Assembly: GCA_964550945.1 (NCBI GenBank)
Contig: CAZKBD010000001.1
Location: 289-64,288 of the forward strand
Length of the DNA stretch: 64,000 nucleotides
Direction: 5' to 3'
Origin: an uncultured Methanosarcinales archaeon
GTDB taxonomy: Archaea > Nanobdellota > Nanobdellia > Woesearchaeales > CAZKBD01
A program made the position numbers and the translations under genes. The notes under the pieces were generated by a model that ran no database searches, had not been told where the DNA came from, and worked only from the letters and a program-made list of their open reading frames with translations. This document shows, one piece after another, positions 5,353-50,941 of the stretch (position 1 is the first letter of the stretch; each line of letters starts with the position of its first letter).

Positions 5353-6435
5353 ATGAAGAAAATCGGTTTATTGTTGATGGTAGTATGTTTGATTGCTGGC
5401 TTAAGCACTATTGCTTTTGCTGCTAATGACACGCAAAAACTAGATATAAAAAGCCTAAAAGTTTATGTTGATGGCAAATCCACAACAGTTGATGATGGAG
5501 ATACCATATCAAAAGAGGCTAGCCCTGGTTCTAAGGTTGAATTTAAAGTTGAGCTGGAAAACCAGTACACAAACGAGCAGGATCTTAATATCGAAGATAT
5601 CACTGTAACAACCACTATAGTGGAGATTGATGATGGCGAGGATATTGATAGTGATGCAGACATCACCGATATAAAGCCAGAGAAAGACAAAACAGTAACA
5701 TTAACATTTGATATTCCTTACCTGGTTGACCAGGACACTTATGATGTTGATATTGAAGTGGAAGGGGACGACGAAAACGGAACCGATCAAAGCTTCATTT
5801 GGACAGTTTATCTAGAAGTAAAAAAGGAAAAACACAATGTGATTTTCACGAAAGCAGGCTTGGAGAATGAAGGCCTAAAATGTGGGGATCTTGCTAATCT
5901 GGATGTGGCTCTTTTGAATGTTGGAGAAGAAGATGAAGATGTCAAGCTGGAGATTAAAAACAAGGACCTTGCTATTGACATAAAAGACTCATTTAGTTTG
6001 GATGGAGACACCATAGACGACGAAGCCAAATACAGCAAATCCTTCGAGATAACCATTCCAAAAAATGCAAAAAAAGGAGATTATCCTGTTCCTTTAAAGG
6101 CAACTTATAATGAAGGAAGCAATACAGAAACAAAAACAGTCACCTTAAGTTTAGGCGATTGTATTGTTGAGCCAATCATAATTTCAGGATGCACTAATGA
6201 GACAGCATTAAACTACAATCCAGATGCAACTAGAGAGGATGGCAGCTGTGAATACGAAGAAGAAATAGTAGGAGAAGATGCTACAGACGTCCCAGAAGCA
6301 GTTCCTGTTTCAGAAGGAACAGTAGCGCCATTCTCAATTGAAGGGATTGCAGTCATCAGCTTGATCATACTAGGAGCAGTGCTTGTGATAGTGCTGGTAA
6401 TCTTCTTGGTTGTAAGGGCTGCTAGAAGGCCATAA
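5353..6435 (+). CDS. Anchored surface protein, paralog of 3903..5252
   Basis: Signal peptide and C-terminal TM plus RAARRP tail. Shares the KV(Y)VDGK...PGSxxEFKxELEN...YDVxIxxxGxxEDGTDxS...KHxVxxxKAGL block with the upstream gene. Confidence 0.65.
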   Translation: MKKIGLLLMVVCLIAGLSTIAFAANDTQKLDIKSLKVYVDGKSTTVDDGDTISKEASPGSKVEFKVELENQYTNEQDLNIEDITVTTTIVEIDDGEDIDSDADITDIKPEKDKTVTLTFDIPYLVDQDTYDVDIEVEGDDENGTDQSFIWTVYLEVKKEKHNVIFTKAGLENEGLKCGDLANLDVALLNVGEEDEDVKLEIKNKDLAIDIKDSFSLDGDTIDDEAKYSKSFEITIPKNAKKGDYPVPLKATYNEGSNTETKTVTLSLGDCIVEPIIISGCTNETALNYNPDATREDGSCEYEEEIVGEDATDVPEAVPVSEGTVAPFSIEGIAVISLIILGAVLVIVLVIFLVVRAARRP

Positions 6436-6510
6436 GCCTTTTTCTTTTGTTTTTACTTTTAAGTAACAAAATTAGAAAGATTTAAAAACAGATTAATATT
6501 CCTCTATCCT

Positions 6511-7266
6511 ATGCCTGTCAAAAAGGAATTTTTAGAGAGAATAAAAAACAACCTCAATATCAACATATATGAGGTTAAGATATGGACTGCTCTGCTAAGC
6601 AGGGGCATTGCTACAGCTTCTCAATTGGCGGATATTTCCGGCGTTCCTCGCTCAAGATGCTATGATGTTCTTGAAACGTTAGAGAAAGAGGGATTTATTA
6701 TAACTAAGCTAGGCAAGCCGATAAAGTATATTGCAGTTGCGCCAGAGGAAGTGATCAGAAGGCAAAAAAAATCAATCAACAAGGAAGCTGAAACAAAGGC
6801 AAAATTTATTGATTCTATCAAAGAAACAGGCACTTTCAGAGAGCTACAGCTATTGCATAGGTCAGGAATAGAAAAGGTAAGCATAGAAGACTTAAGCACA
6901 GCAATAAAAGGAAAGAACGAATTAAAAAGGCATATCAAGGAAATGGTAAATGACGCCAAAAAGAGCATAACAATAGTGACTACAAAAGAAGATTTGCAGA
7001 AGTGGATGGGATTATTGAAAGGGGTTAAGCAAAATGGCGTAACAATAGAGATTGGTCTGCCATCAGATGCGCCTAAAATAAAAAACAATGGGTTCAAAAT
7101 AAGGAAAGTGGACATAAAAGCAAGGTTTATGAGCATTGACCGGCAAAAAGCCTTATTTATGATAAATGATTCAAATATCGATCCAAATAATGATACTGGC
7201 GTTTTAGTCAAAAGCGAATTCTTTACAAGCGCTCTGGATAATCTAATCAAGGCTAATATGCGGTAA
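6511..7266 (+). CDS. TrmB-family archaeal transcriptional regulator
   Basis: N-terminal wHTH (IYEVKIWTALLSRGIATASQLADISGVPRSRCYDVLETLEKEGFI) typical of TrmB, with a C-terminal effector domain. Confidence 0.7.
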   Translation: MPVKKEFLERIKNNLNINIYEVKIWTALLSRGIATASQLADISGVPRSRCYDVLETLEKEGFIITKLGKPIKYIAVAPEEVIRRQKKSINKEAETKAKFIDSIKETGTFRELQLLHRSGIEKVSIEDLSTAIKGKNELKRHIKEMVNDAKKSITIVTTKEDLQKWMGLLKGVKQNGVTIEIGLPSDAPKIKNNGFKIRKVDIKARFMSIDRQKALFMINDSNIDPNNDTGVLVKSEFFTSALDNLIKANMR

Positions 7267-9279: not shown

Positions 9280-10027
9280 GATATTCAAGATAGATAAGAC
9301 GCTCTTGTTCGTTATAATTGCTGATATCTTGTTTTATTTGTGCTTAGCTGGCAGCTTATACTCATTAAACCTCATTATGATTGATAATTTCAAATCATTA
9401 GAAAGCACTTATTCTACACTTGAAAAGCTCAGCTCTATCTATAATGGAGATGCAATCTCATCTGCTGAGTCATTCACAGCTGAGCTGGAATCGACGCAAA
9501 ATATACTCCGTAAAGTGCTTATCAACTCAGCGATAATAAGCATTATCTTTTATTTTTTAATAATTACGTTGATATCCTTGATAAAAGGCTTTATTTGGTC
9601 TAGAATATCCAGCCAAAGATTCAGCTTCAGATATTTTTTGAAGAGTTGGCTGCTTAATTTATTATGGGTTAGTTTCTGGTGCATAATCCTTGCATCAACT
9701 ATAATCTTATTCAAGGCGAATATAAACTACTATATTGTTGCTTTGGAGCTGTTATTATTTATCTACAGCAGTTCTGTTATAAGAGCTTTATTCAACGAGA
9801 AGGAAAGCCTTTTTAGCCAGATTAAGAAAGGGATTAAATCTTGTTTTAAGTTTAGGAAATTGCCCCTGTTGTGTTTATTCATCAGCTTTATTATATTTGC
9901 TCTAATCTATTATCTGATGTTGTTTGTATCGCAGGGAATAACCTTTGTGGTTATAGTCCTTATCATGCTTGCACTATACTCTGCTTTGGCTAGAAGATAT
10001 ATCTTAGATAGCTTGCGCTTGGTTTAA
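9260..10027 (+). CDS. Polytopic membrane protein of unknown function
   Basis: Multiple hydrophobic helices. The start is ambiguous (ATG at 9239 or 9260, both overlapping the metG 3' end). Weak similarity in layout to 43388..44191. Confidence 0.45.
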   Translation: MKEQLVRIFKIDKTLLFVIIADILFYLCLAGSLYSLNLIMIDNFKSLESTYSTLEKLSSIYNGDAISSAESFTAELESTQNILRKVLINSAIISIIFYFLIITLISLIKGFIWSRISSQRFSFRYFLKSWLLNLLWVSFWCIILASTIILFKANINYYIVALELLLFIYSSSVIRALFNEKESLFSQIKKGIKSCFKFRKLPLLCLFISFIIFALIYYLMLFVSQGITFVVIVLIMLALYSALARRYILDSLRLV

Positions 10028-11212
10028 TGTCTGGCAAGAATCTCTTAGATAGCTATTAACTAATTTATCGCAAACTGAATAGTCTTTTTGGTCTAAAACA
10101 AAATTCATATAGCAGGAATCCCTTATCGATTCTTTGGCAATGCCTTCGCAAGCTGAACTGTCAATTTTTGCTTTTGCAATAGATGCATAACATCTGTCTT
10201 TTGACAATTCTTCTGCAATCTTGTCGCAGAAGATGGCATTTTTTGCCACTTCAGCAATGTTCCTGAAGCAGCTATCTCTGTACATTGCAATATCAACCAT
10301 ATCGCAATAATTTGCTGCTGATCTTACATCTGTTTCAGAGATTTTCTTGATTTTATCCAATGTCTCAGTCAAAGTAAGGCCTTCAAACATATCTGTTTGC
10401 TGCTCAATGCAGTCCTTAGAGCATTTTGCAGGAGTCTCTGATTCTTCGCAGATGTTATTGCCGCAGCACGGCATAATTTGTTTATGCTTGCATTCAGAAT
10501 TTTCATCACAATAGTCTTCTGTGCAAAGGTCATAATCATTGCAGCTTGGCGGGCATTTCTTTTCTGCCTCACATGGTTTGCATGCCCCTCCACAATCAAC
10601 GCCTTCTTCATTTTGGTTTTGTATCTTGTCAGTGCAGCTGGATTTTACTGATTCTTCATATATGCTGATTGTTAAAGCTGCTTTTGCTTCCTTGCCATCA
10701 TAAACAGAAACAGCATTTAGTACAGCATTGCCAGGGGCAGCATCGTCTGGAATCTTTATCTTTATTTGCTTGCTTGCTTTGGTCTCAACAGCAGCTGTTT
10801 CTTGATACGATGTTATTGTAGATGATGTATCAATAGTTACCAGGCTATAGCTGGTTGTTGCATCAACTCTTTTTCCGAAATTCGTTAGCTCTCTAATGAA
10901 AACAATCTCTTGGCCAGGCATTACGGTTGTCTGCACTGGCTCTAACTTAATGTCAAGAATAGCTTCCTGGCCAGGTTTAAGGTATATCACCAAAGAAGCA
11001 ACTACCAATGCAAGCCCTATCACAACAAATAACAATGTTAATACCGTTGTTTTTGAAAGATGATGCACTACATGTGTTGTTGAATAAGCCTTGCTAATCG
11101 AACTATTGATATCATTCTGGCTGTATCCAGAATTGATAAGATGGGCCCTTATGCTATCAATGTCATAGCCCTGCTCAAGGTACTGTTTTATGAATTCGAC
11201 TAGCTTTTGCAC
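10004..11212 (-). CDS. Single-pass membrane protein: small cytoplasmic N-domain, TM, extracellular beta-domain, Cys-rich module and (K/R)D(S/Y)C(F/Y/I) repeats
   Basis: Paralog of 19775..20893: MQKLVEFIKQYLEQGYDIDSIRAHLINSGY versus MPQKLTVYIKQQLDRGFDINSIREHLIQYGY. TM helix at residues ~57-78. GVDCGGACKPCE Cys cluster. Repeats YRDSCF / KDRCY / RDSCY / RDSCQ. The start codon is GTG at 11212. Confidence 0.65.
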   Translation of the reverse strand: MQKLVEFIKQYLEQGYDIDSIRAHLINSGYSQNDINSSISKAYSTTHVVHHLSKTTVLTLLFVVIGLALVVASLVIYLKPGQEAILDIKLEPVQTTVMPGQEIVFIRELTNFGKRVDATTSYSLVTIDTSSTITSYQETAAVETKASKQIKIKIPDDAAPGNAVLNAVSVYDGKEAKAALTISIYEESVKSSCTDKIQNQNEEGVDCGGACKPCEAEKKCPPSCNDYDLCTEDYCDENSECKHKQIMPCCGNNICEESETPAKCSKDCIEQQTDMFEGLTLTETLDKIKKISETDVRSAANYCDMVDIAMYRDSCFRNIAEVAKNAIFCDKIAEELSKDRCYASIAKAKIDSSACEGIAKESIRDSCYMNFVLDQKDYSVCDKLVNSYLRDSCQTLNQAQAI

Positions 11213-11447: not shown

Positions 11448-11924
11448 TTAAGATGTGCATGCCTGTTCTATGGCTGGTGTCCCAGTGCAACCTGTAGGTG
11501 TTGAGGAAGCTACTTCTCTTGTTTGTTTGCCGCCCACACACTCTCCCCACGCTGAATAAGTGTAAGTACATGTAGGGGTTGTTTGTTGCTGAGCTGGTGT
11601 ACAAGCCTGCTCTGTGGCAGGTATTCCGGTGCAACCTGTTGGAACAGCAGAAGCTACTGTGCGAATTTGTTTACTATTAGTGCATTCTCCCCACGCTGAA
11701 TAAGCATATGTGCATACAGCTGGTTGTGGAGCCTGCTGAGCTGTGGTCTGCTGGTAAGTTGGCGGTATGTTCGACACTTCAGTGGACTTCTTATCATCAT
11801 TTTTCTCCTCTTTGTTGCAGCATTCGCCGCAGCAATCACAACCACTACATCCAACCAAGAATACGGAAGCTAACAAAGAGGCAATAATCCCTGCAATAAT
11901 CAAAATCTTTGCTATTTTGTCCAT
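11448..11924 (-). CDS. Cys-cluster lipoprotein (lipobox LVGC, CSGCDCCGECC) with two tandem W..W..C repeats
   Basis: N-terminus MDKIAKILIIAGIIASLLASVFLVGCSGCDCCGECCNKEE. Two ~40-aa repeats CTYxYSAWGECxxxKQxRxVASxxPTGCTGxPAxEQACT. Confidence 0.6.
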   Translation of the reverse strand: MDKIAKILIIAGIIASLLASVFLVGCSGCDCCGECCNKEEKNDDKKSTEVSNIPPTYQQTTAQQAPQPAVCTYAYSAWGECTNSKQIRTVASAVPTGCTGIPATEQACTPAQQQTTPTCTYTYSAWGECVGGKQTREVASSTPTGCTGTPAIEQACTS

Positions 11925-11976
11925 CGTTAATGCTTCTTTTAGGGGTATATGAATTTTATCGCTAAACTAATGCATA

Positions 11977-12186
11977 TCATAAGGCATTAATTGGTTGAGA
12001 GCTTATTATTAAATGGTCTATAACTTCAGGCGCTTGAGTGTTACTTGAAGAGCTAGTATTGTTTTTGTCTTCCTTGTTGCAGCATTCTCCGCAGCAATCA
12101 CATCCGCTGCATCCAGTCAAGAAAACCATTATCAACAAAGAAGTGATAATTCCTGCAATAATCAAAATCTTTGCTATTTTACCCAT
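11977..12186 (-). CDS. Cys-cluster lipoprotein paralog (LTGC lipobox, CSGCDCCGECC)
   Basis: MGKIAKILIIAGIITSLLIMVFLTGCSGCDCCGECCNKEDKNN, then a Ser-rich tail. Near-identical N-terminus to 11448..11924. Confidence 0.55.
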   Translation of the reverse strand: MGKIAKILIIAGIITSLLIMVFLTGCSGCDCCGECCNKEDKNNTSSSSNTQAPEVIDHLIISSQPINAL

Positions 12187-12363
12187 ATAACCACCAGTTT
12201 AATTTGGAGTATATAAATCTTATTTCTATTATGGGAGTAGTGATAAATCAAATAGCTTGATTACCAACTTGAAGAAGTGCCACTATTGCTATCTTCCCAT
12301 CCATTATGCACTAAAAAGCCTTCTGCAAATGGGCCATCTATTTGGTCAAAAACCGACCATACA

Positions 12364-12606
12364 CTAAGCGCCAGCATCAGGAACAGCCTCCTCATTTATC
12401 CCCACTTTATAACAACTTCTCTCTGCGAGATTTGATGTACTAGATGCACTACTGTCTTTGTTGGTATCATCTTTATTAGGATTTTTGTCATCAGATTTTT
12501 CAGGATCGCAGCATTCGCCGCAGCAATCACAAGCAACTAAGAATATCAAAAGCAAAATTGATACTGTAAAACCCAATCTAATTAGGGCCCTTCCTAAATC
12601 TCCCAT
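12364..12606 (-). CDS. Cys-cluster lipoprotein paralog (LVAC lipobox, CDCCGECC)
   Basis: MGDLGRALIRLGFTVSILLLIFLVACDCCGECCDPEKSDDKN... Third member of the tandem family. Confidence 0.5.
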   Translation of the reverse strand: MGDLGRALIRLGFTVSILLLIFLVACDCCGECCDPEKSDDKNPNKDDTNKDSSASSTSNLAERSCYKVGINEEAVPDAGA

Positions 12607-12733
12607 ACCGACATTGATTCAACTGGAGATATATAAATCTTGTTATGCTCTAGAATATATCTCATAAAATATATCGCCTTAAAGATAGAAAAGCTTAATA
12701 AGAGGCTTATATGGATATTTTTGGGGGATTTGA

Positions 12734-14263
12734 ATGAAAGTACTATTTGTCAGACCACCAAGATATAAATGGCCTTTTCATTCGGAGAAAAGCAGCTTTT
12801 GGCAGCCATTAGGCTTTGCTTCAATGGCAGCTGTCTTAAGGGATGGAGTAGATGGACTTGACATAAAGATTATTGATTGCCCTGTACAACAATTTGGGTG
12901 GAAAACAACAGAAGAAATAATTTCAAGGGAAAATCCAGATATTCTTTGCGTAGGAGAAGAAACAGTCTCGGCTCATGAAGCAATCAAACTGGTGCATATC
13001 ACCAAATCTTTGTTTCCTTCTTGCATTGTTATTGCAGGAGGTAATCATTTTGCATATATGATCAAAGATAGTCTATTAAGTCAGCCTATCGACTTCATTG
13101 TAAGATTCGAAGGAGAACAAACTCTTTTGGAGCTCATAAGGGCTATCAAGAAAAACCCAAAACCTAACATTAAAAAACTAAAGAGAATAAAAGGAATAGC
13201 ATTTTTGCATGAAAATAAGATAATTGAAACTGAGTTAAGGCCTTTGCTCGATATGGAAAAGCTGCCATTGCCTGCTTATGACCTATTGCCTATGGAATTA
13301 TATGGTAAAGGAGCTAGGTCGCATCCAGACTTAGTTGCAGTCGAACATTCCCGCGGTTGCAGCTGTTCATGCAATTTTTGTATTTTGTGGAAGCAATTTG
13401 GCCAGGTTGACCTTAAAACCGGAGTTGTAAAACCATGCTACAGGACAAAGTCTCCAAAAAAAACCATTGATGAGGTTTTGTATCTGGCTAAAAAATACAA
13501 AAGAAAAACCTTCTGCTGGGTAGATCCAACATGGAATGTCAACTCCAAATGGAACTCAGAATTCTCAAAATTAATGATTGATTCTGGCCTTGATGTTGAC
13601 CATTCAGTATGGATGAGGGCAGACTGCCTTGTTAGGGACCATCAAAAAGGAATCTTTGCAAGCCAAATAAATGCAGGAATCAAACAAGTGATGATTGGCA
13701 TAGAAAGGACAGACAATGATGACCTTGCTTATTTTAACAAGAAGGGCTATTCATATGAAACAACAAAGAAAGCCTTCGAGATTGTAAAAGGCTATCCAGA
13801 GGTTTTGTCAGTTGCGAGTTATATATATGGTATACCTAATGAGACAAGGCAATCAATGAAGCGATTCTACGATTTATTGAGGGATATCCCTTTTGATATA
13901 GGGCTTGCGATCCCTTTGACCCCTAATCCAGGAACAAAATTCTTCGATGACCTTGAAAAGAGGAATCTTATCGAGATAAGGGAGTTTAAGTATTATAATT
14001 TCATTAATCCAGTCGCGAGAAGCAAATACCTTAGCAGAAATGCGTTAATGTTGAATATGGTTTGGAATGAAAACAGGGTAAGGGCAAGCAAAGAGCACCT
14101 GGTAAAATTCCAGTCAAGAGCAAAGAGAAGAAAAACAGCAACAATCAACCTAGCAAAAGGAAAGGCTCAAGTAATGTTCAGGTATGCCAAAGGAATATTG
14201 CAGGAAACCTTGCTTGGCAGATATTACAATTACAACATCAAGCCAGAGTGGTATGAGAAATGA
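12734..14263 (+). CDS. B12-binding-domain radical SAM enzyme
   Basis: N-terminal cobalamin-binding-like domain. Radical SAM Cys triad within EHSRGCSCSCNFCILW (C-x3-C-x2-C). GGGGG-type RBS upstream of the ATG. Confidence 0.8.
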   Translation: MKVLFVRPPRYKWPFHSEKSSFWQPLGFASMAAVLRDGVDGLDIKIIDCPVQQFGWKTTEEIISRENPDILCVGEETVSAHEAIKLVHITKSLFPSCIVIAGGNHFAYMIKDSLLSQPIDFIVRFEGEQTLLELIRAIKKNPKPNIKKLKRIKGIAFLHENKIIETELRPLLDMEKLPLPAYDLLPMELYGKGARSHPDLVAVEHSRGCSCSCNFCILWKQFGQVDLKTGVVKPCYRTKSPKKTIDEVLYLAKKYKRKTFCWVDPTWNVNSKWNSEFSKLMIDSGLDVDHSVWMRADCLVRDHQKGIFASQINAGIKQVMIGIERTDNDDLAYFNKKGYSYETTKKAFEIVKGYPEVLSVASYIYGIPNETRQSMKRFYDLLRDIPFDIGLAIPLTPNPGTKFFDDLEKRNLIEIREFKYYNFINPVARSKYLSRNALMLNMVWNENRVRASKEHLVKFQSRAKRRKTATINLAKGKAQVMFRYAKGILQETLLGRYYNYNIKPEWYEK

Positions 14264-14352: not shown

Positions 14353-15192
14353 TTATAATGTTTTAAAATCCTTTTTAGATTTATTGATTAAGTGATGGGA
14401 ATGTATCAAGGCGATAGAAGAAAATATTGATATCACCAACCCCGCCCACTGCCCAACACTCATCCCAAGATGCTTTGTAACTGGCACGCTCCTGCCCACA
14501 ACCAGGAAATCAATCCAGAAATTGGCAAAGCAATATAACAGCAAAAACCAGAGGATAACCTCTCCATCAAACCTTTTTCCGAATTTGCTTTTTTCTGTTT
14601 TCTCTTTCCCAAAAAACACCTTCAAGATTATAAAAATCAACAAAGCGCTTAAAGCCATATAACCTGAAGCAGGATGCCTGCAAATGCCATCAGGCCACAT
14701 GAAGCACCAAGGAAGGTCTGTTGGAGCGCCCTTAATATCGCCCCTTAATGTACAGCCAAACAAGCGATAGATAAAAAATGCCAAAGCAGCTGGAGCAGCT
14801 ATTATATCCGCAATCCTTGCGAACTCAATTTGCCAGACCTTCTTTTCTTTTTTGAACCTCACTAAAGCATAAACAACAAGCCCTATTGCCCCGCCAATAA
14901 TGCAGCCTATGCTGTATAACCCTCCTTTTGACAAATTAAAAATATCAATTATTGTCTTTAAGCCTTCCCAGTGAGCAATATAAAACCATATCCTTCCGCC
15001 TGCTAAAGCTGAAAAAAGCACTATAGAGAAGAAGACAAAATATTCCTTCACATCCATCTTCAGCTTTTGCTTTTCCAGGCCCTTGATAACCAAAAAGATA
15101 AAAATAGCAAAAGCCAAAGTCATTGCAACAGGCTCTGTCCCTAGTCTAAGCATCCCTATCTGATAATATTTTACTGGCGTGTAAATTATCAT
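14353..15192 (-). CDS. lgt: Prolipoprotein diacylglyceryl transferase
   Basis: Polytopic membrane protein with the Lgt signature region LAGGRIWFYIAHWEG (compare E. coli FLVGGRIGYVLFY) and matching overall size and topology. Confidence 0.75.
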   Translation of the reverse strand: MIIYTPVKYYQIGMLRLGTEPVAMTLAFAIFIFLVIKGLEKQKLKMDVKEYFVFFSIVLFSALAGGRIWFYIAHWEGLKTIIDIFNLSKGGLYSIGCIIGGAIGLVVYALVRFKKEKKVWQIEFARIADIIAAPAALAFFIYRLFGCTLRGDIKGAPTDLPWCFMWPDGICRHPASGYMALSALLIFIILKVFFGKEKTEKSKFGKRFDGEVILWFLLLYCFANFWIDFLVVGRSVPVTKHLGMSVGQWAGLVISIFSSIALIHSHHLINKSKKDFKTL

Positions 15193-15330: not shown

Positions 15331-15417
15331 TTGTTTGCGTAGCAAACAATGGCAAAGGCCAGACGTCTCAGCTTTGCAAAGCAAAGGTGAGGGGTTGGAA
15401 ATGTATGCATTTCCAAG
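15331..15417. promoter_or_regulatory. Cluster of four perfect palindromes in the leader of the 954-aa surface-protein gene
   Basis: ttgtttgc-gta-gcaaacaa (15331-15349), agacgtct (15361-15368), gctttgcaaagc (15371-15382), ttggaaatg-tatg-catttccaa (15396-15417). Confidence 0.4.
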
Positions 15418-15509
15418 CGAGCTTACCAAGTTCCTATACGAAGTATGGGGTTTTGGTAAGCAAAGTAGGGTATTTCGCAACATCCTCAGTTTTACCGAAA
15501 GATTTATTT

Positions 15510-18371
15510 ATGGCGGTTGCTAGAAACCAATTTGTGCTAAAAAAGAGGTGCAAGTTTATCAGCAAAAAATCTCAGATCACCATATTTATAATACTGGGGA
15601 TAATGCTAATTATCTCCATTGGCTTTGTGATAGTTATGAGGGGTCCTGAAGCAGAAATCCAGGAAAAAGAGATTATAAAGCCAACTCTTCCTAAAGTAGA
15701 AAAAGGCACATTCGAGATATACGTAAAGAATTGTATCCGTGATACAGCTATTCCTTTGATAATAGATTTTGCTAAGCATGGAGGCACTTTAGACTCATTA
15801 ACCCCGTTAAAGGATGCAAGAGTCTATTATAACGCTCCTTACAGATATCTATGCGCATACGATTTAGAGCATGGATGTGTCAATAAGATTATAACAAGAA
15901 ACGACATGGAGCAGGAGATTAATGAGCTGATAGAGCAGCCATTCCTTAAGTGCGTAAATCTTGACGCATTTACCGAGCAAAACTACAAGATCGAAACAGG
16001 CCTTTTAGCAATAAATACAACAATAAATGTGGATGATGTTGCTATTACACTAAACTATCCTATGAAAATATCCAGAGGAGAGCTTTTGTTTGAGTTAGAA
16101 ACATTCTCTGAGAAGATTGAAGTTCCTCTTGGCAGGCTTTATGATTTGGCTGTCCAGATTACAAATAGCGAAATAGTGAACAGGACATTTGACAAGGATG
16201 AATGGATGTACAAAAAAGGCGTAAATGTTATAATAGAAAAACATAAGCCCTATCCAGATATTATTTATAGATTAAATAAATACATAAAGGAGACAAATAC
16301 CAATCTGACATTCAATTTTGCAATACAAGGTTATGACACAGTTGCTTTAATTGGCTCAGAAGAGCCGATAAGCCTTTACAATTATTGCTATTTCCCAACA
16401 GAAAAAAATTGCTTTGCGAATTCTGACAAAAATAGATGCGAATCCAAAGGCGGAATCTCTGTAGAAACTCCCTTGGATTGCAGCAGTCCAACTGAATTTA
16501 CAGGCACAACCTTGTGTGATGGCCAACAATGCAACAACTGCAATGATAAGCGAAATGGTGAAACCTGGTGCTTGTATGACAGCATTTCTGGAGCAGGGCT
16601 TGATAGGGCTGGCTCAAGGCATTTCAAGCAAAGCTGCATAAACGGAAAAACATACACAGAAGAATGCAGGGATTTTAGGGAAGAATTATGCACAACAAAA
16701 GACAACAAAGCGGTTTGCAGGGAAAATAGGTGGCAGGATTGCGCCTTGCAAAATAATCTAATTGGCTGCCAGAATGAGGAATTAAGAGATTGCATCTGGT
16801 ATCCGCTGCTTTTTGACACCAAAAATTCTCTGGTTCCAAGATGCGGCCCTATTGTGCCTCCTGGATTTAGATTCTGGGCAGGAGAAGGGATGAATGTATG
16901 CGCCTTTGGCAATGATGTTGGTGAATGCCCAGACACAAAAACTTATTGCCCTGACAATTGGGATGACAGCGCTGCACAATACTGCTATTCAATAGGAGAC
17001 TGCGGAAATTATCTAAACTATCTAGGCCAGCTAACTGAAACCGGATTTTATAATTCTGATCTGATTGCTTATGATCTCCATGTACGTCCAATATTGTATT
17101 ATAAAAATCTCAAAGCAGATGACAGCAAGATTGATCTAGCTACAGGCAAGAATAATAGGGTAATTGCAAATTACGACAACCATCCTTACCCAGGCTCTTC
17201 CTACATAGCCCATGCAACTACTGATGAAATAACTGGATTTGTGAATGATTACATCGATAAAGTTTTAGATTGGGAAATTTGCGATATATTTGAATGTGAT
17301 TTTGGACTTATCCCTAAAAGGCCGCTATACAAACATTTTAAGAAATATGTTATTGGCATCAGCTTTTGCCTGCCTTGGGGCGCTCCTCCTGATGGTGATT
17401 GCGAGCAATGCAATGAAGATCCTGTTAAGCCATGCGGCGAATACAGATGTAGAAGCATCTCTAAAATATGCAATTATTATGAAGATATAAGTACAGGAAT
17501 AGGCAAGTGCGAAACACCAAGGCCAAGCTCGACAACATTAACTGTTGAGGTTGTAGAAGCGCCAGAAGGCTATAATTTCGTAAAGGATTATTTTGCCTGG
17601 AAATCCAAATTACTTGTCGGCAAAAAATTAATGCCTAAAGTTGGGCAGGATAGCGTAATGACATTAAAAGTTAATACAAACCAGGATGCAACATGCTGGA
17701 TAGCTCCTCTGCCTGAATATCTAGACACATTTATTGGAGGAGGGCAATACAGTAAAGAGCATAACCTCACAATGAATATACCTGGTGCAATTGAATTGTA
17801 TCTCAAAAAGATACAAAGCTTGATGAGTATAAGCAGCTTCTCTCAAGGCTATGCGCTTCCAGACAGCATGACTGCCAGTGATTATTTAAGATTTGAAGAT
17901 ATGCTCAAAGACACCTTCCCTGATCTTTCACCTGGAGAATTAAGGGCATTGCAAGCCTCATTAGAAAAAATAATAACAGATGCTGATTCAAGGAAATTTT
18001 ATATGTTCATCAAATGCATGGACAAATTCGGAAATATTAATAACAATAATTATATAACATTTGATATAAGCAGCGACGACAAGGCTCCAACAGTAAAGAT
18101 AGTTTCTCCTGGAAGGGATGAATCTGTTCCAGCAGGCACCATTGATTTCACTTATAAGCCAAAGGATAATATGGCATTAAAGTTATCATGCAGTTTATGG
18201 TACAACAGCACAACTGAAGAATGGCATAAGAGATCCGCTCTCCTAAGCTGGAACAATATAGAAGTCAAAATGCCTGTTGAGCTGGCTGCAGGCACATATA
18301 CCTGGAGCATTTCCTGCACAGACGGATTTAATGAAGCATTTGGAGAAAAAAGGACATTGATCGTTACTTGA
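15510..18371 (+). CDS. Large TM-anchored surface protein (954 aa): N-domain paralogous to 21371 and 35417 proteins, plus Cys-rich core and Ig-like C-terminus
   Basis: Start placed at MAVARNQFVLKKRCKFISKKSQITIFIILG, which matches the K-rich-then-QITVFIILG N-termini of the paralogs. The ORF track starts earlier at 15387. A Cys-dense segment spans residues ~360-560. Confidence 0.65.
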   Translation: MAVARNQFVLKKRCKFISKKSQITIFIILGIMLIISIGFVIVMRGPEAEIQEKEIIKPTLPKVEKGTFEIYVKNCIRDTAIPLIIDFAKHGGTLDSLTPLKDARVYYNAPYRYLCAYDLEHGCVNKIITRNDMEQEINELIEQPFLKCVNLDAFTEQNYKIETGLLAINTTINVDDVAITLNYPMKISRGELLFELETFSEKIEVPLGRLYDLAVQITNSEIVNRTFDKDEWMYKKGVNVIIEKHKPYPDIIYRLNKYIKETNTNLTFNFAIQGYDTVALIGSEEPISLYNYCYFPTEKNCFANSDKNRCESKGGISVETPLDCSSPTEFTGTTLCDGQQCNNCNDKRNGETWCLYDSISGAGLDRAGSRHFKQSCINGKTYTEECRDFREELCTTKDNKAVCRENRWQDCALQNNLIGCQNEELRDCIWYPLLFDTKNSLVPRCGPIVPPGFRFWAGEGMNVCAFGNDVGECPDTKTYCPDNWDDSAAQYCYSIGDCGNYLNYLGQLTETGFYNSDLIAYDLHVRPILYYKNLKADDSKIDLATGKNNRVIANYDNHPYPGSSYIAHATTDEITGFVNDYIDKVLDWEICDIFECDFGLIPKRPLYKHFKKYVIGISFCLPWGAPPDGDCEQCNEDPVKPCGEYRCRSISKICNYYEDISTGIGKCETPRPSSTTLTVEVVEAPEGYNFVKDYFAWKSKLLVGKKLMPKVGQDSVMTLKVNTNQDATCWIAPLPEYLDTFIGGGQYSKEHNLTMNIPGAIELYLKKIQSLMSISSFSQGYALPDSMTASDYLRFEDMLKDTFPDLSPGELRALQASLEKIITDADSRKFYMFIKCMDKFGNINNNNYITFDISSDDKAPTVKIVSPGRDESVPAGTIDFTYKPKDNMALKLSCSLWYNSTTEEWHKRSALLSWNNIEVKMPVELAAGTYTWSISCTDGFNEAFGEKRTLIVT

Positions 18372-19035
18372 TTGACTTCAGAAACAATTTTTCCAGGTCT
18401 GATTTTGGAATTTTTCTTTCAACAATCATCTTCCCATGGTCAATTATACCAATATCTGTGCAAACCTCTTTTATTACAGCCAGATCATGAGAGCTTATCA
18501 CTACTGTCTTGTTTTCAAGAGAGTTCATAAGGTCTTTTACTAGTTTGATGGCTTTGGGGTCTAATCCATTAGTAGGCTCATCCAGAATAATAAGCTCTGG
18601 ATCCCCTGTTAATGTTTTTGCTATTGACAGAAGCTTGGTCATGCCATGTGAAAGATTCTTCACCTTTGTATTTGACAACCCTACTTTAGATAATAAATCA
18701 GACGCTTCTTTCTTTGCATTCTCCACATTTTTCAGCTTTGCGAAAAAGGTTAGATTTTCTAATGCAGTCAATTCTGGATTCAAGCTCGAATTCTGCAAAA
18801 ATGCCCCTAATCTCTGCTGGATTTCATTAAAATTGTTTATGTCTACACCAAATAGTTTTATAGAGCCGGAATTAGGGTATCTTACCCTGCAGAACATAGA
18901 CAAAGTTGTTGTTTTGCCTGCTCCATTCCTTCCTATAAACCCGTATACAGAATTCTTTTTCACATTCATATCTAGCTTGTTCACCGCAATATTTTTCCCA
19001 TACTTTTTTGTCAGATCTTTTGTCTCAATTATCAT
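18364..19035 (-). CDS. ABC transporter ATP-binding protein
   Basis: Walker A GRNGAGKTT, signature LSHGM, Walker B LIILDEPTNGLD. Confidence 0.85.
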   Translation of the reverse strand: MIIETKDLTKKYGKNIAVNKLDMNVKKNSVYGFIGRNGAGKTTTLSMFCRVRYPNSGSIKLFGVDINNFNEIQQRLGAFLQNSSLNPELTALENLTFFAKLKNVENAKKEASDLLSKVGLSNTKVKNLSHGMTKLLSIAKTLTGDPELIILDEPTNGLDPKAIKLVKDLMNSLENKTVVISSHDLAVIKEVCTDIGIIDHGKMIVERKIPKSDLEKLFLKSIK

Positions 19036-19778
19036 AGTTCACGCCTTTTAAATGCCATTAAAGCTATTGCGATAAATATTGCTGCAGAGACTATGAGTAT
19101 TGCCAAAGGTGAAAACACCCTGCCAAAACTGTCAGTCAGCAGATAGAATCCATCAACATAATGTTTGTATGGAGACAGCCACCCGATTGTTGTGCTGATA
19201 AAAAACAAAGGCAGCGCATTTGCAATCAAGCCAAGGTAAAGGCTTCTTTGTGGATTTGATGTCAAGCTCGATGTCATCACAGAAAGCGCCACAAAATACA
19301 AAGAATAAATGCTAAGGAAAAGCCATAATAAGAATCCATCAAATAGCACATATTCTCCTGTTTTTTGGAATATGTAAAACACAGCAATAATATAGATCAA
19401 GAAGTTGATTGTTATATTAATCAAAAAGATGCCTAAAAACTTTCCAAGCACTATCGAGTTTCTTTTGGCTGCAACAACCAGATTTCTTATTGTCTCTTTG
19501 TGTATCTCTTTAGAGATGCAATCATAAGACAGCAATAAAGAGAATACTGGCAGTAGAAATATGGACATAAAATAAAACAGCACTAAAGTGTAAGGCACGC
19601 TTTTGCCATAGAAGCCAAATACCTGTATAAGGATCAGCCTGAAGTTCATTGCAAATGAAACACTTTGGCTGATGCCGAATACCAATAGTGCTACATAAAC
19701 AAATAATAAAAAAAGCACTTTTTTGTTTTTCAAAGACTGCTTGATTTCGTCTAGGGCTATTGTTAATGTTTGTCTCAT
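19032..19778 (-). CDS. ABC-2 family permease
   Basis: Six-helix membrane protein directly upstream of the ATPase. The ATG at 19778 overlaps the stop of the upstream gene (ATGA). The ORF track extends to a TTG at 19796. Confidence 0.6.
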   Translation of the reverse strand: MRQTLTIALDEIKQSLKNKKVLFLLFVYVALLVFGISQSVSFAMNFRLILIQVFGFYGKSVPYTLVLFYFMSIFLLPVFSLLLSYDCISKEIHKETIRNLVVAAKRNSIVLGKFLGIFLINITINFLIYIIAVFYIFQKTGEYVLFDGFLLWLFLSIYSLYFVALSVMTSSLTSNPQRSLYLGLIANALPLFFISTTIGWLSPYKHYVDGFYLLTDSFGRVFSPLAILIVSAAIFIAIALMAFKRREL

Positions 19779-20893
19779 TTGGATAATAAGGCGCAAGACT
19801 CCTTTAAATTCTTATTGGTTATAAGTTCGCAGTCTGAATAGTCATTTGTATTTATCGCAACATTCATTATGCACGAATCTTTTCTTACAATATCCGATAT
19901 CTGCATGCACAACCTGTTATTAGCTGAGCTAAGCGCTATCTCATTAAAGCAGTAATCTTTTCCAGCATTTTCTTCAATTTCAGCGCATAATTTTGCGGCT
20001 TTTTGCGGGTCTTTTTCAACTACAGCATTAACCTCCTTCATTCTCTCCTGAAGGTTCATAGATTCATTTTTCCCACAATCTATACATTCCTCTTGCTCGC
20101 AACCAATATCCTCACAGCATGGCTCGATTGCATCATGCTTGCATTCAAAATTCGTTGTCTCATTGCAATAATCAAAAGTGCAGCTGTTGTTGTCATCACA
20201 CTCTGGGCAGGGGTTTTCTTGTTTACATGCAGTGCATGGGCCTCCACAATCAATATCTTCTTCTCCATGGTTTTTTATGCCATCAAGACATGTTTCAGTA
20301 TTTTTGGTGATATCTGTTGTAAAGACAGAAAATTCAAATGATGCTGAGGCTGTTTTTTGCTGGTAATTGGCAGTAGTCTCTAATTTATAAGTTCCAGCCT
20401 TTGCTTCGCTAGGCATTCTTATTTCTGATAGCTTGGAAGCTCGTGTAATAACTCCAATTTCCTCTTCTAATGATGATACTACAGTCCCATTAGTATCTAT
20501 AATTTGGTGTACTAAGTGCACATCAAACTTTTGGTCGTGTCCAATATTAAAAAGATTTATCTTGAATTCAACAGGCTGTCCTGGCTCTACTGAAGTGGTT
20601 ACTGCATTAATTTCCAAGTCAAGAAGGTACTCCTTTTCTCCCTTAGGAGACATATAGATAAAGATAGATGCTATAACTATCGAGATTCCCATAAAGAAAA
20701 AGATCAATACCAAAGCAGAAGATTTTGAGAGGTGTATTGTGTGCCTTGCTTCCTTATGCCTGTATAGGTTTTCTATGGTATCATCCACTTGTTTAAATGA
20801 ATAGCCATATTGTATCAAATGTTCTCTTATAGAATTGATATCAAAGCCCCTGTCTAATTGCTGTTTGATGTATACTGTTAGCTTTTGGGGCAT
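19775..20893 (-). CDS. Single-pass Cys-rich membrane protein, paralog of 10004..11212; first gene of the ABC-2 operon
   Basis: Same architecture: cytoplasmic N-domain, TM, beta-domain, CGGPCTAC Cys module, KDYCF / KDSCI / KESCA repeats. Its stop overlaps the permease start. Confidence 0.65.
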   Translation of the reverse strand: MPQKLTVYIKQQLDRGFDINSIREHLIQYGYSFKQVDDTIENLYRHKEARHTIHLSKSSALVLIFFFMGISIVIASIFIYMSPKGEKEYLLDLEINAVTTSVEPGQPVEFKINLFNIGHDQKFDVHLVHQIIDTNGTVVSSLEEEIGVITRASKLSEIRMPSEAKAGTYKLETTANYQQKTASASFEFSVFTTDITKNTETCLDGIKNHGEEDIDCGGPCTACKQENPCPECDDNNSCTFDYCNETTNFECKHDAIEPCCEDIGCEQEECIDCGKNESMNLQERMKEVNAVVEKDPQKAAKLCAEIEENAGKDYCFNEIALSSANNRLCMQISDIVRKDSCIMNVAINTNDYSDCELITNKNLKESCALLSK

Positions 20894-21212: not shown

Positions 21213-21374
21213 ATGAGTGTCCAGATAAGGATAACCGTAAGCAAAGAAATTGATGAGCTTCTTTCTAAAGTAGCTAAAAAGCTTGGAAAAAAGAAGAGTA
21301 TGCTAGCCCGCGAACTGATGGAGCAAAAGATGTATGACCTGGAATTGATACAAAAAGGGCTAAAGGAAATATGA
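21213..21374 (+). CDS. Ribbon-helix-helix (CopG/Arc-like) small DNA-binding protein
   Basis: 53 aa: MSVQIRITVSKEIDELLSKVAKKLGKKKSMLARELMEQ... (beta-strand then two helices). The stop overlaps the ATG of the next gene (ATGA). Not in the ORF track because it is under 60 aa. Confidence 0.5.
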   Translation: MSVQIRITVSKEIDELLSKVAKKLGKKKSMLARELMEQKMYDLELIQKGLKEI

Positions 21375-23488
21375 AAAAAGGCAAAAAAGGCCAGATTACT
21401 GTATTTATAATATTGGGCCTTCTTTTGCTGGCTGCAGTTGTTGTTTATGTCAGCATAAATCAAACAGAAAAGGAGAAAGGATCAGCTGCTATTCCAAAAG
21501 TTGAAAAAGTTCCAATAGAATTCCAGCCAATCCAGAATTATGTCGAGAACTGCCTTAAGCTAACTGCTGAAGAAGGACTGAAGTTAGCGATGGACCACGG
21601 CGGCTATATAGATCCAATAACTTCCGGAATTAATTCAAATCCGACAGAGCCAACAAGCTCAAATGGTGTTTCGCTTCCTGGAGATTTCATAATTCCTTAT
21701 TGGTATTATCTAAAAAGCGATAATAGATGCATCAAAAATTGTGAATTCAGCTCAGAAAGGCCTCCATTAAGAAGAAATGAAGGCCCTAAATCAATAGAAG
21801 CCCAGCTTGATAGTTACATCAAAGTAAAAATCAAAGATTGTACAAGAAATTTTGAAGCATTTAAAGAAGACGCAAATGTTGTCGAGAATGGTGTAATAAG
21901 CATTACATCTAGTGTGTTGGATAGTGATGTATTATTTGTGATGGTATATCCATTGGCTGTCACAAAAGAAGGCGTTACAAAAGAGATGAATAATTTCTAT
22001 GTCAGGATTCCAGTCAGATTAAATGATATCTATGAGCTAGCCACAATAATGACTAATCTTGAGGAGAAATACAGGTTCTTAGAGAGAGATGCTGTCCAGC
22101 TTATTGTTGGATTTTCCGGGCTTGATGAAGACAAGCTGCCTCCAATGAGCGAATCCAGAGTCCAGTTTGGCAATGAAATCACATGGACAAAAAGCAAGGT
22201 TAAAAAAGATGTTGAATCAATGCTCTCGAGCTATATACAGCTTCTAAGGGCGCAAAATACCCTCAATTATCAGGAGTATAATTTTGGCGACCCTTACAAA
22301 GATGCATTATACAATCTGCATATGATAATCCCATTTGACCAGGATTATAATCATCTTGCTGCCAGTTTCAATTATCTCCCTGAAACTCCTATTTATTTTG
22401 ATTTGAATTGTGATGGCGAAACCTGCAAGCCTTTATCTGTTTCTCAAAACTTCATTGCCCTGTTCGGCCTCCAAAGATATGAGTTTGCCTATGATATAAG
22501 CTTCCCAGTGATGGTTGAGATATTTGACCCAGCTGCATTTGATGGTAAAGGTTATTATTTCAGGTATTATCTGGAAGCTAACATAGGGAATAATGAGGTT
22601 ATGCTGCATAATTTCACGCAATTAGAAAGCATAGATATGGCAGCTGGCTCTATGATGTGCGATGCTGACAAGAGAAATTCAGGAGAGATAGCCATAAATG
22701 TCAAAAACAAAAAAGGCCAGAATATTGATGGTGCTGATGTCGCATTTAGCTGCGCTGATGAAAGCTGCATTATAGGAGCAACTTCTAATGGCTTGCTTAA
22801 GGAAAAGCTGCCTGTTTGTATTGGAGGTTTTGTAACTGTCATGAAAGAAGGGTATGTTTCAACATCAAACCTATTAAGCACTGTGTTGGACAAGAAAGAC
22901 AGTGTTGACATTGTTTTAGATCCATTAATGGAAAAGCCATTCAAAGTCAAAAAGAAATTGATTGTTAGGGCAGGCGATAATTGGATATTCACCAATAACG
23001 AAGTTGATATTGGCAGGGATGAGCAAGCTATTGTAAGAATCACAAGAGTAGGCTCTTTAGGCGATGAAGAGCATAATTTTGCTGCTGAATATAATGGAAA
23101 TCAAAGCATCTATGGCGGAGAAGAAAGTTTCTTGACAATTGCGCCTGGAACCTATGATATTAGCATACAGGTCATCAACAATCAGAGATTTGTAATACCT
23201 CCAGAAAAAAGAGAAACCGGCAGCGGATTTTTTGGCATAGGCGATGAAGAATACACTATCCCTAAAGTTGAATTTAATGATTCATGGCCTTCTGGCGGAC
23301 TAAATCTAAGATATGAGTTCAAAGCAGAAGAACTTGACAAGAGCAAGAACATTGTATTTTTCGCTGCAGCTCCTGCATTAGACCTTATACCAGAAGAAGA
23401 CAGGCATGTTGAAGATTTAGAGCAGTTGTCCAAAACTGATGAATATTCAGCTGCATATGCAGAGCATTTAAAGCCAAGGCTGGAGTAA
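21371..23488 (+). CDS. TM-anchored surface protein (705 aa), module A gene 1
   Basis: MKKGKKGQITVFIILGLLLLAAVVV anchor. N-terminal ~250 aa paralogous to the 15510 and 35417 proteins. Confidence 0.65.
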   Translation: MKKGKKGQITVFIILGLLLLAAVVVYVSINQTEKEKGSAAIPKVEKVPIEFQPIQNYVENCLKLTAEEGLKLAMDHGGYIDPITSGINSNPTEPTSSNGVSLPGDFIIPYWYYLKSDNRCIKNCEFSSERPPLRRNEGPKSIEAQLDSYIKVKIKDCTRNFEAFKEDANVVENGVISITSSVLDSDVLFVMVYPLAVTKEGVTKEMNNFYVRIPVRLNDIYELATIMTNLEEKYRFLERDAVQLIVGFSGLDEDKLPPMSESRVQFGNEITWTKSKVKKDVESMLSSYIQLLRAQNTLNYQEYNFGDPYKDALYNLHMIIPFDQDYNHLAASFNYLPETPIYFDLNCDGETCKPLSVSQNFIALFGLQRYEFAYDISFPVMVEIFDPAAFDGKGYYFRYYLEANIGNNEVMLHNFTQLESIDMAAGSMMCDADKRNSGEIAINVKNKKGQNIDGADVAFSCADESCIIGATSNGLLKEKLPVCIGGFVTVMKEGYVSTSNLLSTVLDKKDSVDIVLDPLMEKPFKVKKKLIVRAGDNWIFTNNEVDIGRDEQAIVRITRVGSLGDEEHNFAAEYNGNQSIYGGEESFLTIAPGTYDISIQVINNQRFVIPPEKRETGSGFFGIGDEEYTIPKVEFNDSWPSGGLNLRYEFKAEELDKSKNIVFFAAAPALDLIPEEDRHVEDLEQLSKTDEYSAAYAEHLKPRLE

Positions 23489-28113: not shown

Positions 28114-28247
28114 AGCAAGCTCAATCACTCAGCTCAGGAATCTTGTTCATGGTTATAGTCATGGCCATCTTCACCTTTGCAATGTTCGAGTCGGGGGATA
28201 AAATCACCGGGAATATGGTTAAAGTTAGCGGGATAGGTAACAAATGA
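28110..28247 (+). CDS. 45-aa TM micro-ORF, leader copy 1 (duplicate of the N-terminus of the 941-aa protein)
   Basis: MKQAQSLSSGILFMVIVMAIFTFAMFESGDKITGNMVKVSGIGNK. ATGA overlaps at both ends. Contains a 71-nt core identical to copy 2. Confidence 0.5.
   Translation: MKQAQSLSSGILFMVIVMAIFTFAMFESGDKITGNMVKVSGIGNK
28122..28192 (+). repeat. 71-nt leader core repeat, copy 1 (identical to 29212..29282; 3 mismatches to 31260..31330)
   Basis: caatcactcagctcaggaatcttgttcatggttatagtcatggccatcttcacctttgcaatgttcgagtc, read directly. Confidence 0.9.
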
Positions 28248-29203: not shown

Positions 29204-29337
29204 AACGCGCGCAATCACTCAGCTCAGGAATCTTGTTCATGGTTATAGTCATGGCCATCTTCACCTTTGCAATGTTCGAGTCTGGGAATAAGATTACTAG
29301 GAATATTGTAGGGATTAGTGGGATGGATAACAAATGA
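29200..29337 (+). CDS. 45-aa TM micro-ORF, leader copy 2
   Basis: MKRAQSLSSGILFMVIVMAIFTFAMFESGNKITRNIVGISGMDNK. ATGA overlaps with both neighbours. Confidence 0.5.
   Translation: MKRAQSLSSGILFMVIVMAIFTFAMFESGNKITRNIVGISGMDNK
29212..29282 (+). repeat. 71-nt leader core repeat, copy 2
   Basis: Identical to 28122..28192. Confidence 0.9.
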
Positions 29338-29858: not shown

Positions 29859-29862
29859 ACAT

Positions 29863-47907: not shown

Positions 47908-47927
47908 ATGTGAGTTGTCAAGAACCG

Positions 47928-48030
47928 CCGCCCTGAAGGGCAGGGTGTGTTCTTGAGCACACTCAGAAACCGCCCTCTTGCCATAAGCTGAAGCAAAGGG
48001 ATTGCGAGTGGCGGTTTCTGATGTTTCAAA
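47928..48030. other. GC-rich structured element (nested inverted repeats) between ispG and a convergent gene
   Basis: gccctgaagggc hairpin. gtgtgttc/gagcacac stem. 12-bp perfect IR tcagaaaccgcc...ggcggtttctga with ~35-nt spacer. GC content far above the local background. Confidence 0.35.
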
Positions 48031-48133
48031 ATGGAGCATTATTAATAATCTAACTCATCACTATTGCTTTTTTCTTTTTATTCAAAGGCTAGGTAACTAA
48101 TGGATCAAATAGTTATGTTAATTCTCTAACAGA

Positions 48134-48715: not shown

Positions 48716-48796
48716 TTATATTAAATATAAAATTGAGCATATATAAACATTTTGACCAAAAGGAGGCATACAACAACATATCAATCAATCCAGTAA

Positions 48797-50939: not shown

Positions 50940-50941
50940 GA

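Follow-up and report, generated by a model that had tools for sequence, protein, structure and literature searches.

In a 64,000-nucleotide (nt) stretch of a Woesearchaeal contig (CAZKBD010000001.1; hereafter the window), three small adjacent genes, ORF1, ORF2 and ORF3, encode predicted surface proteins in which a hydrophobic helix is followed at once by a dense patch of cysteines. They lie beside a gene for a B12-binding radical S-adenosylmethionine enzyme (rSAM) and a gene of the Lgt family (Lgt-like gene), and the pair is flanked by relatives of the three proteins in five other genomes. We call this Woesearchaeal surface-protein family CysP; in its members, an N-in helix is followed by a cluster of 3–8 Cys, an acidic stalk and a variable ectodomain. 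ORF1–ORF3 are lineage-specific paralogs of CysP, ORF2 and ORF3 consisting of the anchor module only. The three-gene neighbourhood (Lgt-like gene, B12 rSAM gene and poly-Cys surface protein) appears to be undescribed. The reading that we tentatively favour is that the Lgt-like enzyme S-lipidates the Cys patch of CysP proteins and that the rSAM enzyme acts on the lipid.

Three adjacent genes encode lipobox proteins with a Cys patch

The genes and elements of the locus are as follows (aa, amino acids).

11448–11924, minus strand: ORF1, 158 aa; helix, lipobox LVGC, Cys patch, stalk and two repeats
11817–11849, minus strand: Cys patch CSGCDCCGECC of ORF1 (aa 26–36)
11454–11714, minus strand: two 48-aa repeats of ORF1 (CTYxYSAWGEC...GCTG...QACT, four Cys each)
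11946–11953, minus strand: TATA-like box TTCATATA of ORF1, ~22 nt before the ATG
11977–12186, minus strand: ORF2, 69 aa; N-terminal module of the ORF1 type, lipobox LTGC
12079–12111, minus strand: Cys patch CSGCDCCGECC of ORF2, then a 33-aa tail without ectodomain
12210–12217, minus strand: TATA box TTTATATA of ORF2
12364–12606, minus strand: ORF3, 80 aa; diverged helix, lipobox LVAC, acidic tail
12508–12531, minus strand: core CDCCGECC of ORF3
12630–12637, minus strand: TATA box TTTATATA of ORF3
12734–14263, plus strand: rSAM gene, 509 aa, BchE-like (PF02310, 2.6e-13; PF04055, 1e-10)
14353–15192, minus strand: polytopic membrane protein of the Lgt family (PF01790), 279 aa; an 89-nt gap separates its gene from the convergent rSAM gene

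An initial annotation of this DNA had pointed to three adjacent minus-strand genes with a lipobox followed by a Cys cluster, and both the coordinates and the patterns hold. The three proteins share a short positive stretch (MDKIAK, MGKIAK and MGDLGR, respectively), a hydrophobic segment of 19 residues and the dense Cys patch. In ORF1 the helix spans aa 7–25 with an N-in orientation, and an acidic/Lys stalk comes after the patch. Past the helix, ORF1 and ORF2 read LV(T)G-CSGCDCCGECC-NKE and ORF3 reads LVA-CDCCGECC-DPE; ORF3 lacks the CSG, so that the core's first Cys doubles as the lipobox Cys (LVA/CDCCGECC). The window contains the back-translated CDCCGECC pattern three times, as against none in 100 shuffles.

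The N-termini had also been described as near-identical. This is true of ORF1 and ORF2, which share 85–89% DNA identity over ~125 nt and are a tandem duplication with a spacing of 262 nt, but not of ORF3, whose N-terminal module is 47% identical to that of ORF1, with non-synonymous changes in 16 of the first 25 codons. Over their first 45 codons, ORF1 and ORF2 differ by 11 synonymous and 9 non-synonymous changes. In the lipobox and Cys segment the differences are six synonymous and two non-synonymous, and this synonymous excess indicates that the peptide is under selection. Each gene has an archaeal-type TATA box (TTTATATA or TTCATATA) about 22–30 nt before its ATG, a feature kept even in P0007, a distant relative described below; judged from these promoter elements, the three ORFs are predicted to be independent archaeal transcription units. 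Eight assemblies from one groundwater site have essentially the same locus, and an identical ORF2 protein was found on eight contigs from that site.

It is distinctly unlikely that ORF2 and ORF3 are decaying tandem duplicates and that ORF1 alone is functional, a scenario compatible with anchoring of the proteins either by lipid or by the helix. Neither gene has a recognisable ectodomain, their tails have no homologs, and searches downstream in any frame (tblastn, HMM) yielded no copy of the CysP C-terminal domain described below or of an ORF1-like repeat. However, both reading frames are open in all eight assemblies, each has its own TATA box and an intact Cys core, and the motif differences between ORF1 and ORF2 are mostly synonymous.

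Neither the three proteins nor their isolated N-terminal modules had a Pfam or NCBIfam match above noise, in line with the earlier remark that the family was not a recognised one. The ORF1 repeats form a 144-nt direct repeat, and the 48-aa unit has homologs among bacterial secreted and cytochrome c proteins. An AlphaFold2 (AF2) model of ORF1 reached a pLDDT >90 over most of the repeats; a fold search with this model gave no significant match, the top weak ones being thrombospondin-type repeat (TSR) proteins (properdin, pleiotrophin and the semaphorin-5A TSR), so that the modelled repeats may be TSR-like.

Some sequence variation was noted at the locus. In one assembly (ENA ERZ5996431), a 2-nt deletion in the A-run past the Cys patch, at about window position 11804, splits ORF1; at an assembly coverage of 1.9x this is probably an assembly error, although it could be a variant. 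Another assembly (L007) carries nine substitutions within the ORF1 stalk. The 24-nt core TGTGATTGCTGCGGCGAATGCTGC is identical in ORF1 (11817–11840) and ORF3 (12508–12531), while the adjacent helix codons are heavily diverged; it differs by 1 nt from ORF2 and by 3 nt from P0007. Gene conversion or a strong codon preference could account for this identity.

The three proteins carry the only strict lipoboxes among the exported proteins of the window

The initial annotation had proposed a lipoprotein-like signal, and the sequences bear this out: ORF1, ORF2 and ORF3 all match the strict lipobox [LVI][ASTVI][GAS]C as well as the G+LPPv2 pattern, with the Cys at position 26. By comparison, none of the ~8 other signal-bearing proteins of the window satisfies either pattern. 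The net charge of the nine CysP proteins considered here ranges from 0 to +8 in the N-terminal flanks and from 0 to −9 in the 30 residues past the helix. This asymmetry argues for an N-in/C-out topology, with the patch predicted to lie outside the cell.

CysP is a wider family in which the Cys patch varies

The exact Cys motif is almost unique. With the N-module profile, a word-indexed search of 5.8 billion protein clusters found nothing beyond ORF2 and ORF3, and exhaustive HMMER searching of 1.84 billion representatives gave self matches and one true relative, P0007. A second HMMER match, a fungal-like protein, was rejected as a chance similarity to a transmembrane helix followed by CC. At the DNA level, the CDCCxECC pattern was present in 112 stretches of the GTDB species genomes, all due to chance or unrelated and none with the helix-then-patch arrangement; in JGI metagenomes, the pattern extended by [DN] matched 30 stretches, none of them from the family. 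The search of metagenome protein sets suggested by the initial annotation was thus productive as far as P0007 is concerned and otherwise yielded self or chance matches, the motif being confined to the window population and P0007, i.e. two organisms. In metagenomic data we also noted eukaryote-like repeat proteins (L127, L135, L142 and L146) ending in ...ADCxG...(V/I)xCDCCTECCD, an unrelated recurrence of the Cys motif.

The family extends further through P0007. This protein is encoded on a 1.6-kb contig next to a homolog of a 262-aa membrane protein of the window and is therefore syntenic. It shares with five proteins from other Woesearchaeal loci a C-terminal domain of ~100 aa with four conserved Cys (YxYSFxIxAC), and this shared domain ties the five proteins to the window genes via P0007; the window itself holds no copy of the domain. 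The relatives are listed below, the labels L154 to L161 designating the loci.

P0007, 206 aa: starts MRKITQIVISIAVTVLILAAIYPSLG-CDCCDECC-DKEEKEED
L154, 206 aa: VVIVGASNGGGDSGS-CCGCSGCGCC-DTTNQDLDDEED; one gene from the rSAM gene, divergent
L156, 360 aa: LFITG-CCC-GEED, with a canonical lipobox (ITGC); divergent from the Lgt-like gene, 72 nt away
L157, 186 aa: SGGSSSGG-CCGGCC-SSSDVED; on the same strand as the Lgt-like gene and 32 nt upstream of it
L159, 213 aa: GECQECCVNEKNNDDE; 25 nt downstream of an Lgt fusion gene
L161, 193 aa: CYKICFCDAC followed by an acidic stalk; 44-nt overlap with the Lgt-like gene

A fixed rule (a helix, then at least three Cys within 10 aa, then at least five acidic residues within 25 aa), applied to ~212 kb of Woesearchaeal DNA, returned CysP genes exclusively; ORF2 of the window was the sole family member that it dropped, at the acidic-residue step. 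What is kept across CysP is the position just past the helix, the richness in Cys and the acidic stalk, whereas the number and spacing of the Cys vary (CDCCxECC, CCC, CCGGCC, CCGCSGCGCC and CYKICFCDAC). Such variability is easier to reconcile with a lipid-acceptor site than with a defined metal centre, and weakens the metallothionein-like role that had been proposed for the cluster.

CysP genes flank a conserved pair of rSAM and Lgt-like genes

We fetched the genomic contexts of ten archaeal rSAM orthologs (40–71% identity) and of one planctomycete ortholog. Nine Woesearchaeal loci show the relevant side of the contig, and each of them has an Lgt-family gene close to the rSAM gene:

window: convergent Lgt-like gene
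L152: incomplete Lgt-like gene where the contig ends
L153: uninformative, the contig stopping at the rSAM gene
L154: two further rSAM genes, a glycosyltransferase family 2 (GT2) gene and an Lgt-like gene
L155: two Lgt-like genes beside a polyprenyl synthase gene
L156 and L160: a GT4 gene and an Lgt-like gene
L157: Lgt-like gene
L159: Lgt-like gene and a fusion of Lgt to squalene/phytoene synthase (5675–7186)
L161: Lgt-like gene
L158, the sole planctomycete locus examined: neither an Lgt-like gene nor CysP

The constant partner of the rSAM gene is therefore the Lgt-like gene, in a lipid/glycosyl context, since isoprenoid or glycosyl enzymes often accompany the pair. A CysP gene flanks the pair in six of the seven Woesearchaeal loci with both sides visible (window, L154, L156, L157, L159 and L161; it is absent from L160 only), in each case within two genes of the rSAM ortholog. 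The co-occurrence with an rSAM gene that the initial annotation had made the touchstone of its proposal thus withstood the comparison. The CysP genes are found on different sides and strands, and in four of the six loci (L156, L157, L159 and L161) they stand directly beside the Lgt-like gene. An early view that the rSAM adjacency in the window was a coincidental insertion between conserved neighbouring genes was dropped on account of the relatives beside the same pair in the five other genomes.

Single-Cys proteins with a canonical lipobox (LVASC, LLMGC or FLSAC), themselves Cys-rich, were also seen within 6 kb of the pair, at 10239–10931 in L159 and at 16265–17116 and 17165–17803 in L161.

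The Lgt-like protein is a diverged homolog of Lgt

The Lgt-family gene at 14353–15192, the most informative neighbour of the three ORFs, had been missed by the initial annotation. Its product belongs to PF01790 (6.2e-28, 98 bits against a cut-off of 24.9) and falls below the NCBIfam equivalog cut-offs (TIGR00544 lgt, 4e-11). A profile built from six archaeal copies matched E. coli Lgt (5AZB) at 1.2e-18, with both protein halves covered; this profile was needed, as phmmer with the single protein found nothing in the PDB. A single-sequence AF2 model had a mean pLDDT of 52.8, too low for a fold search. The archaeal copies keep R143, G154, the H196-P motif, Y235 and R246. At two further positions the window copy has D in place of E, namely E151 and E243, position 243 being D or E across the copies. 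On these sequence criteria, the protein is a diverged Lgt homolog rather than an equivalog.

Lgt moves a glycerolipid onto the thiol of a Cys located just past the signal helix. This geometry matches the position of the CysP patch.

Two kinds of Lgt signature were noticed: GCxxxGCCYG accompanies spacer-type patches (L154 and L157), and GCTLRGDIKG or GCFLDGHLLG accompanies lipobox-type patches (window and L156). The signature may covary with the CysP type, in a sample too small to judge. In L160, the sole locus without CysP, the Lgt-like copy has lost R143.

Literature on archaeal lipoproteins knows of no archaeal Lgt homologs, and our literature searches retrieved no report of Lgt in Woesearchaeota nor of Cys-rich surface proteins in DPANN archaea.

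The rSAM enzyme resembles enzymes with hydrophobic substrates

The divergent B12 rSAM gene noted at the outset is indeed present, starting 127 nt from ORF3. With an N-terminal B12-binding domain and a CxxxCxxC core, which reads C-SCS-C-NF-C in the translation, the enzyme belongs to class B. In NCBIfam the best match is BchE (6e-58), followed by HpnJ and HpnR, all under the family cut-offs; these three enzymes act on hydrophobic substrates. Weaker similarities link it to B12 rSAM enzymes of ribosomally synthesized and post-translationally modified peptides (RiPPs), namely ApyD (1e-21) and TIGR03975 (1e-17). We counted 591 homologs at E<1e-30, Planctomycetota included, the archaeal orthologs coming from records labelled Woesearchaeota, Nanobdellota or Nanoarchaeota. 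These record names place the organism, a DPANN archaeon, apparently within Woesearchaeota. Literature on archaeal lipids presents B12 rSAM enzymes as established modifiers of these lipids.

The RiPP-like arrangement suggested by the initial annotation, in which the rSAM enzyme would methylate the Cys patch or cross-link it through thioethers before export, is very improbable. The short divergent spacing to ORF3, the recurrence of CysP within two genes of rSAM orthologs and the ApyD and TIGR03975 similarities speak for it. However, BchE, HpnJ and HpnR match better, and the Pfam scan of the enzyme showed B12-binding and Radical_SAM domains only, with no SPASM or RRE domain. The rSAM gene is distributed far more widely than CysP, the planctomycete locus having neither CysP nor an Lgt-like gene, and it is the Lgt-like gene, not the rSAM gene, that CysP abuts in four of the six loci. 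Moreover, Sec-type anchors, folded ectodomains and relatives of 186–360 aa are unlike precursor peptides. No RiPP-type peptidase gene was found beside the three genes, and the ABC transporter gene pair at 18364–19796, ~3 kb from the Lgt-like gene, shows no RiPP link.

Lipid anchoring weighed against a helix anchor

In the S-lipidation reading, CysP proteins would first be exported by Sec. The Lgt-like enzyme would then alkylate the lipobox Cys, and possibly other patch Cys, linking a membrane lipid to them by a thioether and giving a lipid-anchored surface protein whose signal may be cleaved. The rSAM enzyme, and the prenyl synthases and glycosyltransferases of related loci, would act on the lipid and not on the peptide. 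We favour this reading, with the reserve already expressed, because strict lipoboxes are limited to the three proteins among the exported proteins of the window, with an Lgt-family gene two genes away, and because CysP flanks the rSAM/Lgt-like pair on varying sides and strands. The rSAM enzyme is placed on the lipid side because of the fusion of Lgt to squalene/phytoene synthase in L159, the polyprenyl synthase in L155, the BchE, HpnJ and HpnR matches and the established role of B12 rSAM enzymes in modifying archaeal lipids.

Several observations weigh against S-lipidation. Five of the nine proteins (P0007, L154, L157, L159 and L161) have no canonical lipobox, as judged by inspection of the sequence for L159 and L161, and in several of these relatives a Gly/Ser spacer precedes the patch. 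The 19-aa hydrophobic region has the length of a transmembrane helix and is long for a cleaved signal, so that the helix of the window proteins may be an uncleaved anchor; no signal peptidase II (LspA) was present among the Pfam-scanned proteins of the window, which covers 64 kb of the genome. Concerning the enzyme, we take Y26, N146, E151, G154 and E243 to be catalytic or required residues of E. coli Lgt. Y26 is not kept (E in the window copy), and N146 is replaced by Cys in 8 of 11 copies, that of the window included. R239 is Asn in the window copy and is kept by the relatives. The window copy thus departs from the E. coli catalytic or essential set (Y26, R143, N146, E151, G154, R239 and E243), in which R143 and R239 are the two essential arginines (PMC12462473). 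All loci were sampled through the rSAM gene, which makes the link between Lgt and CysP conditional on rSAM presence. Finally, synteny around the pair is broad: L154, L156 and L157 have MCM close by, and there are further recurrent genes, for a pilin-like giant protein and for a 400-aa Cys-rich protein, so that part of the adjacency may be inherited gene order.

An alternative that we consider rather unlikely is that CysP is an uncleaved, unlipidated type II anchor whose patch either binds metal, in thiolate clusters of Fe, Zn, Ni or Cu, or ties the stalks together by intermolecular disulfides, its adjacency to the rSAM/Lgt-like pair reflecting inherited synteny in an envelope gene island. In addition to the missing lipoboxes and the synteny with unrelated genes such as MCM, it is consistent with hydrophobic segments of 19–21 aa in seven of the nine proteins, with five or six Cys within 8–11 residues interspersed with D/E, and with the weak match of one relative to the FeoB-associated Cys-rich membrane proteins (E 0.0013, below the cut-off). 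The variable Cys spacing argues against a defined metal site, however, and an anchor of this kind would not account for the persistence of CysP beside the Lgt-like gene despite rearrangements of side and strand, nor for window copies that fit two independent lipobox patterns when the other exported proteins of the window fit none.

Other genes of the window

Also encoded in the window are a TrmB regulator and a ribosomal protein of archaeal/eukaryotic type (S13_N/S15 domains); tRNA and Rfam scans found nothing in it. Its other features of note are as follows.

10004–11212 and 19775–20893: paralogs of 402 and 372 aa, each with a cytoplasmic N-domain, one transmembrane helix, an Ig-like domain and a Cys-rich region
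15387–18371, 21371–23488 and 35417–37318: giant Cys-rich proteins of 994, 705 and 633 aa
27179–28113, 29334–30438 and 34136–35246: three nucleotidyltransferase-containing gene pairs, possible toxin–antitoxin modules
28244–29203: YhcG PDDEXK nuclease
37315–43368: 2017-aa secreted protein with a C-terminal glucosaminidase (PF01832) domain
44978–55850: complete bacterial-type methylerythritol phosphate (MEP) pathway in this archaeal contig (dxs, ispG, dxr, ispDF, ispE, ispH/LytB), with a polyprenyl synthase and a geranylgeranyl-reductase-like flavoprotein

The N-termini of the giant proteins, KKGQ(I/L)T(I/V)FII(L/I)G, are similar to class III (type IV pilin-like) signal peptides. The 994-aa protein has orthologs next to the Lgt-like gene in L154 and L157 and within a few genes of the pair in L156 and L161. 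The 402- and 372-aa paralogs match Dicty_CTDC weakly and have orthologs near the rSAM/Lgt-like pair in L153, L157, L159 and L161. The 2017-aa protein may be a cell-wall hydrolase directed against a bacterial host. The nucleotidyltransferase pairs and the YhcG nuclease lie between surface-protein genes.

Significance and comparison with known systems

The locus offers a concrete and clonable pair of enzyme and candidate substrate, a PF01790 gene with a B12 rSAM gene and usually a poly-Cys surface protein, often lipobox-bearing. It also indicates an undescribed isoprenoid-lipid gene cluster in DPANN archaea, organisms usually thought to be host-dependent for lipids. A multiply lipidated patch would make CysP a prokaryotic protein anchor of a new form; otherwise, CysP is an orphan Cys-rich surface-protein family in a syntenic envelope island.

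Membership of the window proteins in PF12669, the metallothioneins or the RiPP classes considered here was tested and rejected. The FeoB-associated Cys-rich membrane proteins (PF12669) are, like CysP, small proteins of no known function with one helix followed by a Gly/Cys-rich patch. However, the sole match is the L157 relative (19.3 bits against a cut-off of 27), none of five N-modules, the window ones included, matched PF12669 at E up to 10, and no feoB gene was seen in the context. Metallothioneins share CxC, CC and CxxC motifs and a very high Cys density, but CysP proteins are predicted to be membrane-tethered and extracellular, with 3–8 Cys whose spacing is not kept. SCIFF/ranthipeptides and the substrates of B12 rSAM RiPP methyltransferases resemble the window in that a short Cys-rich ORF adjoins a radical SAM gene; the window differs by having no SPASM/RRE, leader/core logic or protease, and by an rSAM enzyme conserved far beyond the peptide. 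In eukaryotes, juxtamembrane poly-Cys S-acylation sites and the double prenylation of Rab CC/CXC motifs illustrate how a variable Cys cluster by the membrane can be a multi-lipid site. The analogy with CysP is functional only, as these sites are cytoplasmic and served by unrelated enzymes, and they have no homology to CysP.

On sequence grounds, the known kind closest to the window proteins would be the Lgt-dependent lipoprotein: the signal and the lipobox agree with it and the enzyme does so in part. As in bacterial Lgt/LspA lipoproteins, there is an n-region and h-region, a lipobox with its Cys at position 26 and a PF01790 gene in the neighbourhood. The differences are that the host is archaeal, that four or five more Cys lie within 10 residues of the +1 Cys, that the h-region is long (19 aa), that several relatives have no lipobox and that no LspA was seen in the window; in addition, the window enzyme has Cys at N146 and lacks Y26.

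Among archaea, lipidation at a lipobox was an open question until the description of AliA and AliB in 2025, and lipoproteins are predicted to be prevalent in DPANN (PMC12462473). A bolder version of our reading, which we regard as improbable, is that Woesearchaeota have a three-part anchoring system in which the Lgt-like and B12 rSAM enzymes install one or several thioether isoprenoid lipids on the poly-Cys patch; this would be a new multi-lipid anchor and the first functional archaeal Lgt homolog, acting in parallel to or instead of AliA/AliB. The Haloferax volcanii AliA/AliB system (PMC12462473) likewise concerns archaeal surface proteins with a lipobox. It differs from the locus described here in that the window has a clear PF01790 homolog beside its candidate substrates.

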